16,659 nucleotides of DNA from a virus (taxonomy: Duplodnaviria; Heunggongvirae; Uroviricota; Caudoviricetes): IMG/VR virus record IMGVR_UViG_2548876696_000013; one strand, written 5' to 3'. Position numbers and translations under genes: made by a program. The notes below the pieces were generated by a model, which had not been told where the DNA came from, did not search any database, and was given only the letters and a program-made list of their open reading frames with translations. This document shows positions 10,720 through 16,659 of this stretch, piece after piece. How positions within the stretch are numbered: the stretch's first letter is position 1; the number at the start of each line of letters is the position of its first letter.

Positions 10720-12129
10720 TTACAGCGGGCGCACGTCATCACCGTCAATAACGATTACGCCATCATTTTCCAGCTTGTACAGCCAGCGCCGGAAGTGCTT
10801 CATCTCATACCCCAGCTTTTTCATATCATCGCGGAGAAGGGCGATAGTGCACGCCTCCCCGTGTGCTGTTCGTGTTCTGATGCACTGCCATAGCGCGGCG
10901 TGATTCTCCGTCTTGTTCCCTGCCTCCTCGATGCGCTCCAGTTCAACGGGAGGGCGCGGCTTATCCACCACCACCAGCGACGTGATTAACTCCCCGTCAG
11001 CGTCGGTAAAAAGCTCCACCACCCGCAAATCATAGGCAGCCTCTTTGAGTTCCTCCGCGTCCTTCATTTTGGTGCATGAGATAACCAGCGCTTCGCTTCC
11101 TGCGTCCTCCCTGCGTATCCGGTATTCAGCATCCAGTGATGCACGAAATGCACTGGAACCGCGCGCGCCTTTCGTCTCATCCTTGCCGGAATGGTGAACC
11201 ACCAGCACCGTGGCCCCTGTGCGCCGTTTCAGTTCGTCACACCCACGGATAAACGCCCCCATGTCACGGGAATCATTTTCGTCATTGCCGCCAAAGCAAC
11301 GCGCCAGCGTGTCCAGAATAATCATGCGAACAGGTTTACCCGTTTCCCGCTCAACCTGGCTGGCAGCAATAACCAGTTCATCAACATCAAGCGGGACAGC
11401 CGGAAAGATGGGACGGTTTACAAGGTAAAGATTTTTCACCTGCTCCCCGTGCACAACCTCCCAGGCTTTTACACGACGCGGAACGCCAATACCGCCTTCA
11501 CCAACCACATAGAGAACAGCGCCATGCGCCACCCTGCGGCCTCCCCACTGGCGGCCCGTGGAAACGTGACACGCCCACGATCCGGCAAGGAATGATTTAT
11601 AGGAACCGCTCGCCCCGTATATGCTGCAAAGCGACGATGCCGGAATAATCCCCTTTACCACGTAATCAAGCTGTGTGTCGTATCCGGTAGATCCAACGCT
11701 CATCGGTAGCGTGGTTTTTCGCTGGGGGATTTTTTTCATGACCAGGCTTTCCCCGCGTTCCCATGCCTCCCTAAGCCGTGGAAGCTGGTCGTTCCATTCC
11801 TCCAGCAATTCGAAATTTTCAGAAAGTAGCCGCGCCTCCTGGACTCCGGCGATCGCCAGTTTCGTGGCGATGGTTAACAGCTGCGGCTCTTCAATATTTC
11901 CGGCGCGTATCACCGTCGCCCTGTATCGCCCATCATCAACAATCTGGAGGTTATCCAGTTCGCTTAACTGATAACGCCCCAGATAAACGGGAGGGACTGG
12001 ATCGCCTGCTTTTTTGGCCTGTGCAATGATGTAGTGCTCTGCAAATGAGTGCGCATTATTCCCCGCGAAAATAATTGCTTCGGTGTATTTGTCTTTCGGT
12101 AATAGTTTTACGTTCGGTGCAAGTTTCAT
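10720..12129 (-). CDS. Replication initiation ATPase / helicase-like protein, RecA-fold AAA type (469 aa)
   Basis: Walker A motif GASGSYKS, Walker B-like MIILDTLARCF, and a C-terminal putative winged-helix region. Position immediately upstream of the iterons. Confidence 0.8.
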   Translation of the reverse strand: MKLAPNVKLLPKDKYTEAIIFAGNNAHSFAEHYIIAQAKKAGDPVPPVYLGRYQLSELDNLQIVDDGRYRATVIRAGNIEEPQLLTIATKLAIAGVQEARLLSENFELLEEWNDQLPRLREAWERGESLVMKKIPQRKTTLPMSVGSTGYDTQLDYVVKGIIPASSLCSIYGASGSYKSFLAGSWACHVSTGRQWGGRRVAHGAVLYVVGEGGIGVPRRVKAWEVVHGEQVKNLYLVNRPIFPAVPLDVDELVIAASQVERETGKPVRMIILDTLARCFGGNDENDSRDMGAFIRGCDELKRRTGATVLVVHHSGKDETKGARGSSAFRASLDAEYRIRREDAGSEALVISCTKMKDAEELKEAAYDLRVVELFTDADGELITSLVVVDKPRPPVELERIEEAGNKTENHAALWQCIRTRTAHGEACTIALLRDDMKKLGYEMKHFRRWLYKLENDGVIVIDGDDVRPL

Positions 12130-12430: not shown

Positions 12431-12658
12431 TTATTCTCCGGTGTGGGGCGCTTTATTATTTTCGTGAATTGCCATCGCCTTATCCAGTTCATCAATTACA
12501 GGCGATAGTAATGTCTGAACGGCGGCAAATATTAATGATGCAGGTTCTCCACCATCTTCCGGCACGTCTATTAACTTAATTAACAGCGCATTCATTTCAC
12601 GCGCTTTAATTAATGCGTTTTCAGAATGAATAAGAACATCATAGGGTATTTTATGCAT
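12431..12658 (-). CDS. Hypothetical protein (75 aa)
   Basis: ORF whose start overlaps the stop of the upstream small gene by 8 nt (ATGCATAA). No family recognised. Confidence 0.5.
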   Translation of the reverse strand: MHKIPYDVLIHSENALIKAREMNALLIKLIDVPEDGGEPASLIFAAVQTLLSPVIDELDKAMAIHENNKAPHTGE

Positions 12659-12821
12659 GACTCACCCCCTGACGAATACGGGCGACAAAAATCAGATGTG
12701 CGCGCGGCAACTGGGCGCGGGCTTCGCGTTCAGTGGCTGCGGTAACGGTGTAAATATCAATGCTGCTGTGGTGGCACTGCATAAAGCGCCAGACAAAGTA
12801 AGGGCGTGCGGATACAGCCAT
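12651..12821 (-). CDS. Small protein, paralog B (56 aa core; possibly Icd-like). A longer 150-aa form starting at 13115 is also possible
   Basis: Shares FVWRF, TEREAR and ARIRQG motifs with paralog A. A synonymous codon difference in the shared ARIRQG segment supports coding on this strand. Start is ambiguous. Confidence 0.45.
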   Translation of the reverse strand: MAVSARPYFVWRFMQCHHSSIDIYTVTAATEREARAQLPRAHLIFVARIRQGVSHA

Positions 12822-13107
12822 GTGAAAGGCTCCCAGATGAAATTTAAGGAGTCTCGCTACTACGCTGCTAAACGGGGTGGCGAGACGTAACAGGGTTAGC
12901 AGACTGGTCATCTGGAAACCAGCGAGCGCAAAGGCTCCCCCGTTACGCCCCGCCATAATGCGGGTATGGGTAGGTTTACGGACACAAAAAAACCGCTTAT
13001 CGGATATGGGCGGCTGTCCGCCAGATGTATTCAGGCTGCTAAACCCGGTCGCCATGTGGGCGACGGGTGAAGCATACAGCCCCGTTATAATTTTTTGCAA
13101 GCGGCTT

Positions 13108-13305
13108 TTACTCATGATGTGACCCCTGACGAATACGAGCGGCAAATACAGCAACACAACCGGACGGGCAACGGTTACGCGCTTCGCGTTCCGTCCAGGC
13201 GGTGACGTGGATGATTTGAGATTCTCCGGCACTCAGGGCCAGAAAACGCCACACAAAGGCCGTTTGTGTGTGTACAAGGTGTGGTATATGATTTACGGCA
13301 ACCAT
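13108..13305 (-). CDS. Small protein, paralog A (65 aa); possible host cell-division-inhibitor Icd-like protein
   Basis: Strong SD (GAGGAG 6 nt upstream of the ATG). Paralogous to 12651-12821. The Icd-like call rests on an uncertain memory of the family pattern. Confidence 0.5.
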   Translation of the reverse strand: MVAVNHIPHLVHTQTAFVWRFLALSAGESQIIHVTAWTEREARNRCPSGCVAVFAARIRQGSHHE

Positions 13306-13336
13306 AACGGCTCCTCGTTTACGTTGTTGGTTAGAA

Positions 13337-13377
13337 GCCCCGTATGTGTTCCAGCACTGCGGGGTTTCGTCTTTTCT
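13337..13377 (+). terminator. Hairpin (ccccg / cgggg stem, conserved 17-nt loop) with a U-rich tail; plus-strand terminator-like element, copy 1
   Basis: Seen in sequence. A near-identical element, including the loop, occurs at 14083-14124. Confidence 0.45.
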
Positions 13378-13394
13378 GTACCTTGCATCAACAA

Positions 13395-13476
13395 GGTGTA
13401 AGACACAATGTAAAATAACGGTGTCTTACACGTCAACCCTTCAAAATATTTTTTTTTCGTGTATATTGTCTTACAC
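13395..13476. promoter_or_regulatory. Divergent promoter/operator region with three GTCTTACAC sites (one inverted pair and one direct copy)
   Basis: GGTGTAAGACAC at 13395-13406 is the reverse complement of GTGTCTTACAC at 13421-13431; a third copy lies at 13467-13476. A possible sigma70 promoter (TTCAAA, 16-nt spacer, TATATT) sits at 13440-13467. Confidence 0.5.
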
Positions 13477-13497
13477 CAAAAACATGAGGGGTTAAAC

Positions 13498-13677
13498 ATG
13501 GCAACGGGGCCAAAGAATGCAAAATCACAATCTGTAACTGCACGTATTGCCCATGAAATTATTGAAGGCATGGAGAACGTGAAAGAAGAAGGTGAAAGCA
13601 CGGGGCAGTTTATAAACGCAGCCATGCGCGGCGAAATCAAACGCCGCCAGCGTCGCAAGGCCAAAGAATCAGAATAA
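13498..13677 (+). CDS. Ribbon-helix-helix (CopG/Arc/MetJ-like) DNA-binding protein (59 aa); candidate repressor
   Basis: GAGGGG SD 7 nt upstream of the ATG. Beta-strand/helix/helix pattern (QSVTARIAHEIIEGMENVKEEGESTGQFINAAMRGEI) and a basic C-terminal tail. Confidence 0.55.
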   Translation: MATGPKNAKSQSVTARIAHEIIEGMENVKEEGESTGQFINAAMRGEIKRRQRRKAKESE

Positions 13678-13734
13678 TCACTATCAGCGCCGTGGTGTGA
13701 GGTACTACGGCGCATTGCTTTACAGGGCAGTATC

Positions 13735-13962
13735 ATGACCAACAACACACTATCACCAATACAAGACACGCAAACGCAAGATGATGAAATCATCCGGCAA
13801 AGGCAGTCAGAAGCCTGCGCCAGACTTGAGGAAGAACTAACCAGAACAAAAATACCACCACCAGCGCCGCGCTTAGTGCCACCAGAAAAATTTGCCCTTG
13901 AAGATTTTGTCGATAAATACCCACGGCGGCTTAAATCCGGCAAAAACCGACCGCCAGGATGA
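13735..13962 (+). CDS. Small hydrophilic protein (75 aa), partner of the RHH protein, module 1
   Basis: Paralogous to 14420-14623 (both start MTN; shared motif F-x-L-[ED]-[DE]-F-[VL]-x-K-Y-[PS]-R). Weak SD. Confidence 0.4.
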   Translation: MTNNTLSPIQDTQTQDDEIIRQRQSEACARLEEELTRTKIPPPAPRLVPPEKFALEDFVDKYPRRLKSGKNRPPG

Positions 13963-14082
13963 GTGCACAAAACCGAACTATGAAACGGATTATTCCGTTT
14001 CCGGGGCGTTTGTGTGTGTATAAAGAGTAAGCTATGCTCTTTTATAGCCATAATCGTTACCTCAATTAATGGTTTGGTTAGA

Positions 14083-14124
14083 CGCCCCGTATGTGTTCCC
14101 ATCACTGCGGGGCGTTGTTTTTTG
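14083..14124 (+). terminator. Rho-independent terminator-like hairpin (CGCCCCG / CGGGGCG) plus TTGTTTTTTG, copy 2
   Basis: 7-bp stem, 18-nt loop nearly identical to the loop at 13343-13359, then a T-rich tract. Confidence 0.5.
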
Positions 14125-14130
14125 TGCTAG

Positions 14131-14164
14131 TTGTGTGTAATGTGTATATACACATAAACACATT
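14131..14164. promoter_or_regulatory. Operator-like 16-bp perfect palindrome ATGTGTATATACACAT (14140-14155) overlapping a putative -10 element
   Basis: Perfect palindrome seen directly. Possible promoter TTGTGC (14122-14127), 17-nt spacer, TATATA (14145-14150). Confidence 0.45.
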
Positions 14165-14182
14165 ATATGGGGTGTAATTGAC

Positions 14183-14362
14183 GTGTCAACACACAAGAAT
14201 GAAAGGCGTGGTAATCCTCCTTTCCAGTTCCGTTTAGATCCTGACTTACGGGAAAAGATGGAAAAAGCACAACAACAAGACGGTGATGACTCTTTAGCTG
14301 CTTGGATAAAACGAATAATCCGAAAAGAATTACAGCAACGCGGTATTGAACCCAAAGAATAA
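14183..14362 (+). CDS. Arc-like ribbon-helix-helix protein (59 aa, GTG start)
   Basis: Absent from the supplied ORF track because it is only 59 aa. GGGGTG SD 8 nt upstream of GTG at 14183. The pattern PPFQFRLDPDLREKMEKAQQQDGDDSLAAWIKRIIRKEL matches the Arc/RHH fold. Confidence 0.5.
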   Translation: MSTHKNERRGNPPFQFRLDPDLREKMEKAQQQDGDDSLAAWIKRIIRKELQQRGIEPKE

Positions 14363-14419
14363 AAAACATCAGCGCCGTGGCGTGAGGAACTCCGGCGCAT
14401 TGCTTTACAGGTACACACA

Positions 14420-14623
14420 ATGACCAATAAAGAATCAACCAATACACCATCGCAAAAAACGAACAGAGAGCACGAAAATATGGCGCTCGAGCATGAATCA
14501 GAAAGATTCGCTCCATGCGCTTTTGTCCTTGATGAGTTTCTAAAAAAATATTCACGTTCTGAACGGATGAAAATGGCAGCACAATACGGCCCCAACAAGC
14601 AAGGTAATTGCCCACCAGCCTGA
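14420..14623 (+). CDS. Small hydrophilic protein (67 aa), partner of the RHH protein, module 2
   Basis: Paralog of 13735-13962; preceded by the same conserved hairpin element. Confidence 0.4.
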   Translation: MTNKESTNTPSQKTNREHENMALEHESERFAPCAFVLDEFLKKYSRSERMKMAAQYGPNKQGNCPPA

Positions 14624-14697
14624 TAGCGGCTATCATTCCCGTGCTTATGTTTGGGATCACATACACATAAGGCGCAGCAGGTTAATTGTTCAGAAAG

Positions 14698-14726
14698 GCG
14701 GCTCCATATCGGGGCCGCTTTTTTTA
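14698..14726 (+). terminator. Strong Rho-independent terminator (GCGGCTCC-atatc-GGGGCCGC then T7)
   Basis: 8-bp GC-rich stem with one G-U pair, 5-nt loop, seven T's. Ends the plus-strand modules and lies convergent with the alpA 3' end. Confidence 0.75.
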
Positions 14727-14866
14727 TGCCTGAAAAACCCCAATTTTGTTGTTTTTCAGTTTCACCAGGGCGAACGAATCCCCGCCCACGTTCGGGCGCA
14801 TATTCAATCTTCATAGTTATATCTCTGTATTAGTGGATGTGTGGCGACTGTGTGCCGCCAGTCTTT

Positions 14867-15055
14867 TTAGTGAACTGCCTTGCAGCTATCCTTCCAGGCC
14901 AAAACCTCAGATAAAGACCAGCCAACAGAACGCCCACCAAGTTTACGACGTGATGGGAATTGTCCGGCCTTTTCCAGGCGGTAGCGGCATGAGCGGCTAA
15001 GGCCTGTTAGCTTTTCGCATTCTTTTTCACGTATAAACCGATCAGTGCTTAACAC
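14867..15055 (-). CDS. alpA: AlpA-family phage regulatory protein / excisionase-like HTH (62 aa, GTG start)
   Basis: Motif KLTGLSRSCRYRLEKAGQFPSRRKLGGRSVGWSLSEVLAWK is typical of the AlpA/Vis family. SD AAGGGGG lies 7 nt upstream of the GTG. Confidence 0.85.
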   Translation of the reverse strand: MLSTDRFIREKECEKLTGLSRSCRYRLEKAGQFPSRRKLGGRSVGWSLSEVLAWKDSCKAVH

Positions 15056-15429: not shown

Positions 15430-16659
15430 TTATTTTATTCTGGTTACTGGTAGCGTGGTTACGTTTTCATGTGTTCCCGCCAGTATCTCCAACCGCTCCA
15501 CCCACATATCAAGCGCATTGCGTTTCGCATCAATATAGCGGGAATGGTTGTACACGCGTTGCATTCCTGGCATCTGGTGGCCTGTAAGCTGCTCCACGAC
15601 GTGAGGATCAACGCCTAAATCGTTCAGCATGGTTGTAAAGGTGCGCCGGATGTCATGCAGTGACCAGTGAGGGTGTTTAAGCCTCCTGTGCACCAATCTG
15701 CCGTACTGCGATACGCTGGTTTCCTGTTTCACTTCCCCCAGCAATAAGCCCGTGTGCCTGTTCTGCTCCACCAGCTGCGTGACGAACGGCAGTATCGCTT
15801 CCGGTATGGGCCGGAATATGGCTACCTTCGTTTTGCTGTGCTCCTTCGGAACGGTCCAGAGCATTTCGGTAAAATCCCACTCGCCGATCTCCGATAACCT
15901 CAGTTCTACTGTCCGGCATCCGAAAACAATCAGGAGGCGGATTAGTGCGACGTAGTAAGGGGAAAATATTTTTTTGTCCAGTGCCTGCAATAATTCGCCA
16001 AGTTCTTTGTTACTTAAGACACGCTCACTTATATCCGGTTTTTTCCCAACGTCCGCCACACTCATATCATCAAGAACGTTGCTGATTGCATAGCGCCGCT
16101 TCCTGCAGAACTTAAGCGCCTGCTTGCATGTCTGTAGCAGGAACCCGGCGGAAACAGGGGCTTTCTTTGCCACCCGATCAAAACAGGCCAGCCAGTGCCG
16201 TAGCTCGCATTTATCCAGCGGCATAGGGCCAATGTGCTGTATTACGTGATTATTTAGCCGCTTTTTCAGTGGGTCATAATCCACACGGTTTTCCTTTGCG
16301 TACGACTCAAGCCAGTAGGTGAGCGCATCGCCAACCGTTACCGGCTTTAACGCTTCCTGTACGGTGTAATTCATTTCATGACGTGGATTTTTCCCCTCTG
16401 CCAGCCATGCGCGACACTGGGCGGCTTTTTCCCTGGCTGATTTCAGGCTCAGATCAGGATAATTTCCCAGCTTAATGCGTTCCGGTGGTGCCCCCCTTCC
16501 CGTTCCGGCCCTGTAAGTGAAATACCAGGTTAAAAGGCCACTGGTTGAATGCCTGACGCTCAGGTTTCCACCGTCATTAAGAAAGGCTGTTTTTTGGGCG
16601 GGTGTGCCGTTGATTTTCCTCAGCTGTGTATCGCTCAGTTTGTTAAGTGCTCTGCTCAT
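15430..16659 (-). CDS. int: Tyrosine site-specific integrase, P4-like (409 aa; start codon is the last three bases of the window)
   Basis: N-terminal arm-binding-like region (LSDTQLRKI ... DGGNLSVRHSTSGLLTWYFTYR) and a C-terminal catalytic region with conserved R, HxxR and Y (HDIRRTF ... YNHSRYID). The upstream RBS is outside the window, so the true start could lie further out. Confidence 0.9.
   Translation of the reverse strand: MSRALNKLSDTQLRKINGTPAQKTAFLNDGGNLSVRHSTSGLLTWYFTYRAGTGRGAPPERIKLGNYPDLSLKSAREKAAQCRAWLAEGKNPRHEMNYTVQEALKPVTVGDALTYWLESYAKENRVDYDPLKKRLNNHVIQHIGPMPLDKCELRHWLACFDRVAKKAPVSAGFLLQTCKQALKFCRKRRYAISNVLDDMSVADVGKKPDISERVLSNKELGELLQALDKKIFSPYYVALIRLLIVFGCRTVELRLSEIGEWDFTEMLWTVPKEHSKTKVAIFRPIPEAILPFVTQLVEQNRHTGLLLGEVKQETSVSQYGRLVHRRLKHPHWSLHDIRRTFTTMLNDLGVDPHVVEQLTGHQMPGMQRVYNHSRYIDAKRNALDMWVERLEILAGTHENVTTLPVTRIK

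Follow-up and report, generated by a model that had tools for sequence, protein, structure and literature searches.

Each of the two small operons on the plus strand of this phage satellite's regulatory zone carries, between a ribbon-helix-helix-like (RHH) regulator gene and the partner gene behind it, a spacer of 57 nt that is under some constraint, and its sequence is most simply read as an mRNA hairpin followed by a ribosome-binding site that would tune the second cistron. We believe that leaky termination, processing or both may act at the hairpin, which would then form the 3′ end of the RHH mRNA and in this way tune the partner gene down; we give this reading a probability of roughly 0.4. 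The element is real, yet it is a fairly ordinary kind of regulatory spacer.

The window, that is, the whole stretch of 16,659 nt that was analysed, is a capsid-forming PICI (cf-PICI) or P4-like phage satellite of E. coli that runs from right to left on the minus strand. The following features define its setting:

15430-16659, minus-strand reading of the satellite: integrase
14867-15055: AlpA (Pfam Phage_AlpA, 5e-18)
10720-12129: AAA_25 primase/helicase-type protein
13108-13305 and about 12654-12860, minus strand: two Icd-like ORFs
13028-13077, minus strand: a1b1/seqA-type target of the C4-type RNA (44.4 bits)
12873-12960, minus strand: C4/P4-CI-type antisense RNA (Rfam RF01695, 71.6 bits; gathering score 45)

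Further satellite genes encode a DUF4222 protein, an SSB, a PerC-like activator, a major head protein, a protease, a portal and a large terminase. The two RHH-partner operons, referred to as module 1 and module 2, are the only plus-strand coding in the regulatory ("Bro") zone. The RHH-partner module has the AlpA activator on one side and the C4/icd immunity unit on the other, and it is exchanged like an immunity cassette. Islands of the cf-PICI and P4-like kinds are present in about one-third of sequenced E. coli, EHEC included, and their silencing and induction are only partly understood; in the literature that we searched, we found neither the spacer hairpin nor the RHH-partner module described. 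The genes of the two modules are:

13498-13677, plus strand: RHH1, YlcI/YnfO-family (ribbon-helix-helix-like) regulator, first cistron of module 1 (NCBIfam NF041551, 5e-18; phrog_949)
13735-13962, plus strand: partner 1, 75 aa, second cistron of module 1 (family alignment)
14183-14362, plus strand: RHH2, Arc-like regulator variant, first cistron of module 2 (phrog_228 Arc-like repressor, 1.5e-6)
14420-14623, plus strand: partner 2, 67 aa, second cistron of module 2 (phrog_21027, 2e-12)
14697-14727, plus strand: terminator ending the module 2 operon (-21.7 kcal/mol, z -3.6, then U7)

RHH2 matches NF041551 weakly, and a Pfam search with the RHH proteins gave no match. The AlphaFold2 model of RHH1 (59 aa, pLDDT 88) shows an extended N-terminus followed by helices at residues 19-28 and 35-58; a PDB sequence search and Foldseek returned no match for the fold, which is uninformative for a model of 59 aa. 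The partner family shares the conserved motif ERFAPCAFALExFLKEY / KFALEDFVDKYPR, and the indels in its alignment are multiples of three. Homologues of the partner protein were found in E. coli only, in a search of 5.8 billion proteins. The terminator at 14697-14727 is weak when folded on the minus strand (z -1.1), and the presence of such a strong plus-strand terminator behind a partner gene indicates that transcription of the plus strand is real.

The spacer element occurs twice in the window, with these parts:

13678-13734, plus strand: element copy 1, 57 nt, the whole spacer from the RHH1 stop to the partner 1 ATG
13687-13713, plus strand: hairpin of copy 1, arms GCGCCGUGGU / ACUACGGCGC, 10-11 bp including one G·U, 7-nt loop GUGAGGU
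13724-13726, plus strand: AGG, Shine-Dalgarno core of partner 1, with 8 nt between it and the ATG (columns A50, G51 and G52 of alignment A3, all invariant)
14363-14419, plus strand: element copy 2, 57 nt, with its hairpin at 14372-14398 and its AGG at 14409-14411

A preliminary description of this DNA had placed a conserved element between the RHH and partner genes of both modules, and this is borne out: the copy 1 core, which reads ATCAGCGCCGTGG..CGGCGCATTGCTTTACAGG at 13683-13726, is identical to the copy 2 core at 14369-14412 in 41 of 44 bases (93%), and 75 nt can be matched without gaps at 80% identity (13671-13745 vs 14356-14430). The flanking genes are far more diverged, as had also been claimed, with protein identities of 25% between RHH1 and RHH2 and 36% between the two partners. 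The coding DNA of the two modules can barely be aligned, the unit-to-unit alignment being poor save for three short blocks, which speaks against a recent duplication of uniform identity. The folding energy of copy 1 is -24.3 kcal/mol (z -2.9), and that of copy 2 is -15.8 kcal/mol (z -0.9), a value at the level of shuffled sequence. None of the three differences between the copies is compensatory, and two of them break outer-loop-proximal pairs (U-A to U·C and U-A to C·A), so that copy 2 retains just the 6-bp GCGCCG/CGGCGC core and a few further pairs. The earlier statement that this stem is preserved therefore holds for its core and not for these two pairs of copy 2. In a lenient terminator scan, the hairpin of copy 1 was called terminator-like with the tail ATTGCTTTAC.

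A search of 5426 complete E. coli genomes with a 101-nt query around copy 1 found matches to the element in 1579 of them, at 2084 places; among the matches listed, nearly all the places lie under a gene of the YlcI/YnfO family. For an unbiased sample, loci were anchored on the RHH protein and not on the element (80 IMG/VR loci and 50 loci of other species), and with the addition of a pattern scan the distinct contexts in which the element occurs came to 73. These islands shuffle at least 12 RHH types, among them an Arc-like type and a long form of 114 aa, with at least 10 partner types. The layout of a stop codon, 57 nt and an ATG is nevertheless kept in all 72 contexts that could be annotated, with no indel that alters the length. 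In 2556 pairs, identity within the 42-nt core remains level, at 0.83-0.87, at all degrees of RHH identity, and it averages 0.865 in the 617 pairs in which both genes are less than 65% identical, with shuffled controls at about 52%. The claim that the non-coding segment is conserved above its genes is thus upheld across islands (core about 86%), and the free divergence that would have spoken against a function is not seen in the 73 contexts, where identity is independent of the flanks.

Element identity is 0.95 where the partners are at least 95% identical and 0.77 where they are less than 55% identical. Variants of the element thus track the partner type and not the RHH type, which means that the element belongs with the 5′ region of the partner gene. 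Alignment A3 and 36 unique variants give a constant order of parts: stop codon, 10 nt, the 27-nt hairpin, 10 nt, AGG, 8 nt and AUG. The first 9-10 nt after the stop codon vary and follow the RHH type. The hairpin loop reads GUGAGG in most variants, and the 10-nt stretch between the hairpin and AGG reads AUUGCUUUAC in copy 1 and AUUGCUAUGC, ACUGGGUUAC, ACAGGGUUAC or AUUGUUUUAA elsewhere. Both AGG and AUG are invariant, and the 8 nt between them are variable. AGG lies at a normal Shine-Dalgarno distance, so the 3′ third of the element is the partner's ribosome-binding site. What had been introduced as a conserved hairpin element is consequently a hairpin in part, its last third being the ribosome-binding site of the second gene.

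At the RHH loci of other genera, the element is absent. The sequences downstream of the RHH gene in protein-anchored loci from 50 species of other genera are unrelated to it, and in Salmonella islands the RHH gene is followed by a TumE-type gene pair or immediately by alpA. A covariance model of the element (R1), run over 88 loci (424 kb) of other genera or contexts, found E. coli-type copies only and none that had diverged. Since the partner is also confined to E. coli, the element is a lineage-restricted companion of the partner gene and not of the RHH family. Neither the element nor the upstream hairpins described below match Rfam 15, at the gathering score or at E ≤ 5. Matches in a wider pattern scan of IMG/VR were mostly GC-rich chance. 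The element is a handy, near-invariant marker with which RHH-partner modules can be found and typed.

Such a distribution might have an explanation other than regulation. The block could have no regulatory role beyond its ribosome-binding site and be a recombination joint for RHH/operator and partner cassettes, kept alike by frequent gene conversion between islands and tandem modules. The extensive shuffling of RHH and partner types agrees with this, as do breakpoints inside the element (5′ flank with the RHH type, 3′ part with the partner type), chimeric combinations such as L237 and the restriction of the block to E. coli-type modules; the same zone of these satellites has been described as a site of domain and segment swapping (PMC10111431). 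The explanation does not tell us, however, why this segment alone stays homologous when the adjacent partner codons are at about 50% identity, why its 57 nt are free of indels in 72 contexts, or why changes in the stem lean towards those that preserve pairing on one strand. We consider a joint of this kind unlikely as the whole explanation, and gene conversion or hitch-hiking at the element could explain part of its conservation.

The strand on which the hairpin acts is suggested by the nature of its substitutions. On the plus strand, standard pairs make up 94.2% of the cells in 24 variants. The G20·U32 pair is retained in 23 of these, and the commonest stem changes lead to further G·U pairs (C-G to U·G, G-C to G·U and U-A to U·G). 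Read on the minus strand or as duplex DNA, both the conserved G·U and the G·U-type changes would turn into mismatched A·C, so an RNA of the plus strand is favoured. Minus-strand folds of the two copies are close to shuffled sequence (z -0.5 and -1.1). An antisense RNA of the sar or oop type on the minus strand is not supported, given these folds, the A·C mismatches and the lack of a called minus-strand promoter inside the downstream gene. A double change that keeps pairing is found at one pair (UA to CG, L192 type), and in L109, which has a different gene downstream, an 8-bp hairpin is kept via a G·U/G-C swap. Pairs are broken in other variants, by U·C in five and by C·A or A·A in six; the L067 type has lost three central pairs, and in the L080 and L108 types, with the tail ACUGGGUU or ACAGGGUU and a stem full of G·U, the lowest-energy fold is a different structure. 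Covariation, for which homologous islands had been proposed as a source, is not significant for the spacer hairpin (score 0.097; shuffled alignments average 0.100, and 203 of 500 score at least as high). The pairing potential is conserved, yet the evidence is chiefly conservation of sequence and falls short of structural proof.

The same data bear on a reading of the element as a double-stranded DNA site, in which the palindrome GCGCCG-N15-CGGCGC is bound by a dimeric protein such as AlpA, the integrase or the RHH protein. The perfect 6-bp inverted repeat is nearly invariant, and the loop GGTGTGAGGTAC agrees with the operator of module 1, GGTGTAAGACAC, in 9 of 12 bases. Conservation is asymmetric, however, and reaches 3′ into the ribosome-binding site; the inner stem tolerates G·U-type changes that break the DNA dyad; and the same loop occurs in modules with unrelated operators. 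Since the loop is unchanged where the operators of the module are unrelated, its reading as an RHH operator was rejected, and we regard a DNA-binding site in general as highly improbable. The initial proposal of a functional RNA or DNA element is thus narrowed to a plus-strand RNA in preference to a DNA palindrome, and its version as a canonical attenuator is weakened, the U-tract being unconserved.

The tails behind the stem read ATTGCTTT, ATTGCTAT, ACTGGGTT and ACAGGGTT. By a lenient U-tract test (5 T in 8 nt), ATTGCTTT and ATTGTTTT pass and ATTGCTAT, ACTGGGTT and ACAGGGTT fail. The terminator-type criterion is passed by 7 of 19 element variants, and the stem begins 9-11 nt past the stop. 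Copy 2 and the L067 and L080 types have weaker stems than copy 1.

The location of the hairpin led us to favour a role at the 3′ end of the RHH message. A hairpin 10 nt past a stop codon lies just outside a terminating ribosome. RNase E prefers sites of the type RN|WUU, which the motif GC|AUU, present at the foot of the stem in most variants, resembles. In 27 of 88 RHH homologues without the element, a canonical terminator-like site lies within 90 nt after the stop, which indicates that the hairpin occupies the terminator position of the family, but with a degraded U-tract and with a gene behind it. In the mechanism that we propose, the hairpin would fold in the plus-strand mRNA just beyond the footprint of the ribosome terminating at the RHH stop, and would create or protect the 3′ end of the RHH cistron. 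The route might be leaky intrinsic termination, endonucleolytic cleavage at the GC|AUU motif in the 3′ foot, or both. The autoregulatory RHH protein would thereby be made in excess, and the partner would be translated only from read-through or unprocessed transcripts, via its own modest ribosome-binding site. If the hairpin does set the ratio of RHH protein to partner, it would be part of the maintenance switch of the satellite.

Several observations count against this 3′-end reading, namely the lack of significant covariation, the unconserved tail, the weak stems of some variants and the fold of copy 2 at the level of shuffled sequence. Moreover, since sequence and not only structure is conserved, recognition by a factor or homogenisation by recombination fits at least as well. 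For the former, the hairpin would be a specific site for a trans-acting factor (the partner, the RHH tail, a helper-phage or satellite protein, or an sRNA) that controls translation of the partner or transcript elongation, like a translational operator or a nut/boxB site in the 5′ UTR of a gene for a small basic protein. The primary sequence of the stem, the loop and the G·U is conserved beyond the needs of pairing, many partner variants contain the arginine-rich stretch SPARKRRRRKI, most RHH types end in GEIKRRQRRKAKE, and a hairpin ahead of a small gene recalls the layout of lambda nutL-N. Yet both window partners and RHH2 are devoid of the arginine-rich stretches despite carrying the same element, and changes of RHH operator type are not matched by changes in the loop. 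A lambda-type nut site was itself rejected, as boxA (CGCTCTTA-like) is absent and a 10-bp stem with a 7-nt loop differs in dimensions from the 15-nt boxB pentaloop hairpin. No complementary RNA was found in the island, with chance 9-10-mers only and no stretch of 11 nt or more complementary to the element anywhere in the window. On these grounds a dedicated factor site is in our opinion rather improbable.

Four other pairings or products were tried and rejected. The C4/CI antisense RNA does not appear to target the element, because RNAduplex scores are at the level of shuffles (z +0.42 and -0.57) and the real a1b1 site lies on the other transcript strand. Kissing with the loops of the upstream hairpins gave duplex scores that were inflated by GC stems and inconsistent between modules. 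Sequestration of the start codon by CAUUG:CAAUG is perfect in three partner types and reaches 3-4 of 5 bp elsewhere, and RNAalifold does not recover the pairing. Read-through of the RHH stop into an RHH-linker-partner fusion is conceivable for both window copies, in which the spacer keeps the frame and is open, but L057 and L083 carry in-frame TGA/TAA. Among an attenuator, an RNase site and a protein-binding site, the functions proposed at the outset, the sequence does not separate further.

The opposite strand of both modules is occupied by long open frames:

13293-14105, minus strand: stop-free antisense ORF over module 1, with an internal SD and ATG at 14051
14062-14814, minus strand: stop-free antisense ORF over module 2, starting 53 nt downstream of the alpA stop

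The module 1 antisense ORF ends 11 nt past the icd-like ATG (13305). Minus-strand stops number 0/20/15 by frame at 13296-14105 and 5/0/22 at 14065-14814. The minus frame across the element is stop-free in 73 of 73 contexts, with spans of 231-820 codons, and it is open in 106 of 107 unique RHH genes from many Enterobacterales genera, where synonymous resampling predicts 40%. Stops are avoided via the base before CAN codons, which is T in 1 of 525 cases vs 19.7% expected. The antisense frame is usually in phase with the Icd-like ORF and is fused to it in frame in most other islands. Its features are those of a P4 eta-like ORF: it is long, co-oriented with and downstream of the alpA/vis homologue, spans the leftward promoter and leads into the immunity-RNA region. 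In P4, the long ORF eta is coupled to the homologue of alpA, and when it is translated from the late promoter, immunity-specific termination is prevented (PMC10111431). Stop avoidance with no amino-acid constraint suggests that translation of the antisense ORF may likewise prevent premature termination of leftward transcripts.

These open frames raise the possibility that the element is constrained on the minus strand, within the pass-through ORF of the leftward alpA to icd-like transcript, where it could act as a signal for pausing or structure or encode a peptide (CKAMRRSTSHHGAD). The open frame in every context and the avoidance of stops are in favour of it. However, variable sites within the element are not enriched at third positions of the minus frame (about 4 of 13), amino-acid constraint is absent (transversions at 71% of sites vs a 78% baseline), and the A·C mismatches and poor minus folds noted above argue against a structure on this strand. 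The peptide was rejected as the cause of conservation, for want of third-position clustering and amino-acid constraint, and we judge a minus-strand role very unlikely. For the RHH genes, a transition/transversion test showed that the plus frame is constrained (transversions at 37% of the sites that are twofold in plus and fourfold in minus, vs the 78% baseline). With the plus frame constrained and the minus frame not, the RHH gene is a real gene and the antisense frame is merely held open. PGAP annotates the antisense ORF (247 aa) in EDL933, where it replaces the two real plus-strand genes, and its calls are inconsistent.

A more elaborate model would combine both strands. The RHH-partner operon and the leftward transcript from alpA through the eta-like ORF to icd-like/C4 would form a convergent, fully overlapping sense/antisense switch, with the hairpin as the control point that decides between rightward (maintenance) and leftward (induction) expression, either as a sequence-specific RNA signal read by a factor of the helper or the satellite or as a programmed stop for RNA polymerase moving rightward. 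We hold this to be quite doubtful. If it were true, the hairpin would be a new class of cis-regulatory RNA specific to E. coli satellites, and the open, otherwise unconstrained antisense frame would be a new kind of operon-in-operon embedding.

Upstream of each RHH gene lies a second hairpin:

13334-13377, plus strand: upstream hairpin 1, intrinsic terminator (stem and T-run) between the icd-like start and the RHH1 promoter
14081-14125, plus strand: upstream hairpin 2, the equivalent terminator, lying between the two modules

The upstream hairpins fold with z -4.5 on the plus strand vs -1.4 and -3.7 on the minus strand, and the T-run is found on the plus strand only. In 15 variants, compensatory changes occur at three pairs (A-U/C-G in six sequences, C-G/G-C in two and G-C/C-G in three), and many pairs are G·U. 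The near-identical loop of 17-18 nt, which the preliminary description had noted, is a feature of the two window copies only; across islands the loop varies and the inner helix changes by compensation. A -10-like motif (TGGTATGAT and relatives) is conserved about 45 nt upstream of the hairpins, though the icd-like N-termini differ between islands. An RNA of about 80 nt from this region, at 13299-13377 on the plus strand for upstream hairpin 1, would consist of a 5′ hairpin displaying CUCCUC or CCUC, complementary to the icd-like Shine-Dalgarno, and then the terminator (z -4.4 and -5.0). It looks like a candidate cis-antisense sRNA against the icd-like translation start and has no match among Rfam families. 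The antisense-embedded operon and this candidate anti-icd sRNA are more unusual and of more interest than the spacer hairpin, and together with the inconsistent PGAP calls, the pass-through frame and the candidate sRNA may be of greater consequence for annotation and for modelling how satellites are regulated.

Among known systems, the setting of the element most resembles immunity regions. That of P4 contains vis(alpA)-eta-kil with the CI RNA and seqA (PMC10111431). The window shares with it, and with c4-icd-ant of P1, the C4/CI-type RNA, an a1b1/seqA-like site and Icd-like ORFs, a likeness of context and not of the element. It also shares with P4 the long co-oriented ORF downstream of alpA that crosses a constitutive leftward promoter. 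Unlike eta of P4, the frame here is only held open, with no amino-acid constraint, and a real divergent RHH-partner operon is embedded antisense within it. To our knowledge, such an antisense-embedded operon in an eta-like frame has not been described for P4.

The nutL/boxB site of lambda, a 5-bp stem with a GNRA-like pentaloop, lies upstream of N. Like it, the spacer element is a conserved hairpin within the 5′ UTR of a small gene that is arginine-rich in some variants, and it differs in the missing boxA, in the stem and loop sizes and in window partners that have no arginine-rich motif. In the immI region of P22, arc encodes an RHH autorepressor of the Arc type and is followed by a second gene, ant, and the sar RNA comes from the minus strand and has a promoter and a terminator of its own. 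A conserved intercistronic region likewise follows the RHH gene here, where control of the second gene is putative. Unlike sar, the minus-strand hairpin of the element is weakened by A·C, no U-tract follows it and no conserved promoter was seen; the partner protein is unrelated to Ant.

The closest parallels to the hairpin itself are the operons papBA, malEFG and puf, in which intercistronic mRNA hairpins act as leaky terminators or RNase E processing sites and give unequal expression of the genes of the operon. The element differs from these in that its U-tract is weak and unconserved, its primary sequence is conserved far more than usual and its 3′ end is predicted. It has in common with them a GC-rich stem-loop right behind the stop of the first cistron, which is regulatory here, a partly U-rich tail, an RN|WUU-like foot and a second cistron with its own Shine-Dalgarno.

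In alignments of the partner proteins from the RHH–partner operons (loci L078, L083, L196 and others) the sequences have a mosaic make-up, and their C-termini are interchangeable; the arginine-rich stretch SPARKRRRRKI, common among them, is missing from both window copies. Most types of the ribbon-helix-helix-like (RHH) regulator share the C-terminal end GEIKRRQRRKAKE. In Salmonella loci L254-L256 a TumE (PF20126)/HVO_A0114 gene pair (1818-2463, + strand) follows the RHH gene and replaces the partner gene, while in the Salmonella islands L257 and L258 alpA lies directly after the RHH gene. A search of the phage collection gave no match to the intercistronic element. By contrast, the 106-kb Klebsiella phage P12620-1 (L253, 2001-2077) matches window 14046-14123, the block that contains the upstream terminator plus the icd-like start, at 79.5%, and two short phage records match this block as well.

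Several RNA features lie in and around this zone:

~13287-13377, + strand, candidate cis-antisense sRNA of ~80 nt, opposite the icd-like Shine-Dalgarno sequence and start codon
~14032-14125, + strand, second copy of this candidate (~80 nt), likewise placed
14841-14863, + strand, hairpin plus T-run resembling a terminator, in the interval from the alpA stop codon to the antisense ORF start
12873-12960, - strand, C4/P4-CI-type antisense RNA (71.6 bits)
13028-13077, - strand, c4-a1b1 target (44.4 bits, near threshold)
12986-13064, - strand, weak isrK-like match (36.8 bits)

The candidate sRNA has a conserved -10-like motif TGGTATGAT, a 5' hairpin whose loop contains CCUC, and, on its 3' side, a terminator in which three pairs covary; it matched no Rfam family. 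A direct repeat beginning GCTGCTAAAC occurs at both 12864-12881 and 13035-13052, and its copies would fit seqA/seqC-type target sites flanking the C4-type RNA on both sides.

Probable leftward promoter sequences accompany both modules:

14162-14189, - strand, perfect sigma-70 consensus TTGACA-16-TATAAT, leading out of module 2
13407-13436, - strand, module 1 counterpart TTGACG-18-TACATT

The former overlaps the palindrome TGTGTATATACACA, and the latter is surrounded by three copies of GGTGTAAGACA(C/A). These sequences are probably the leftward promoters under RHH control and their operators.

On the opposite strand, open frames run across the modules:

13293-14105, - strand, antisense frame without a stop codon, module 1
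14062-14814, - strand, antisense frame without a stop codon, module 2
L129 1747-4035, - strand, antisense frame without a stop codon
14002-14051, - strand, Icd-like N-terminal remnant MAIKEHSLLFIHTQTP, cf. MVAVNHIPHLVHTQTA at 13305
L251 2207-2950, - strand, 247-aa antisense ORF of E. coli O157:H7 EDL933 (NZ_CP124740.1, 638259-639002)

The remnant marks the junction of the ~745-bp tandem unit, has its own Shine-Dalgarno sequence and ATG, and now lies within the module 1 antisense ORF as its internal start.

Annotation of the zone is inconsistent between genomes: RefSeq/PGAP calls the EDL933 antisense ORF a hypothetical protein and leaves out the RHH and partner genes, whereas these + strand genes are annotated in other genomes. 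Each RHH–partner module, in L129 as in the window, is enclosed by an antisense frame that is stop-free throughout, shares third codon positions with the + strand genes, and is fused or coupled to the Icd-like ORF. Family-wide, 106 of 107 RHH genes have this open antisense frame, where 40% would be expected. Stops are avoided and amino-acid constraint is absent, and the frame looks like a pass-through ORF of the P4 eta type.
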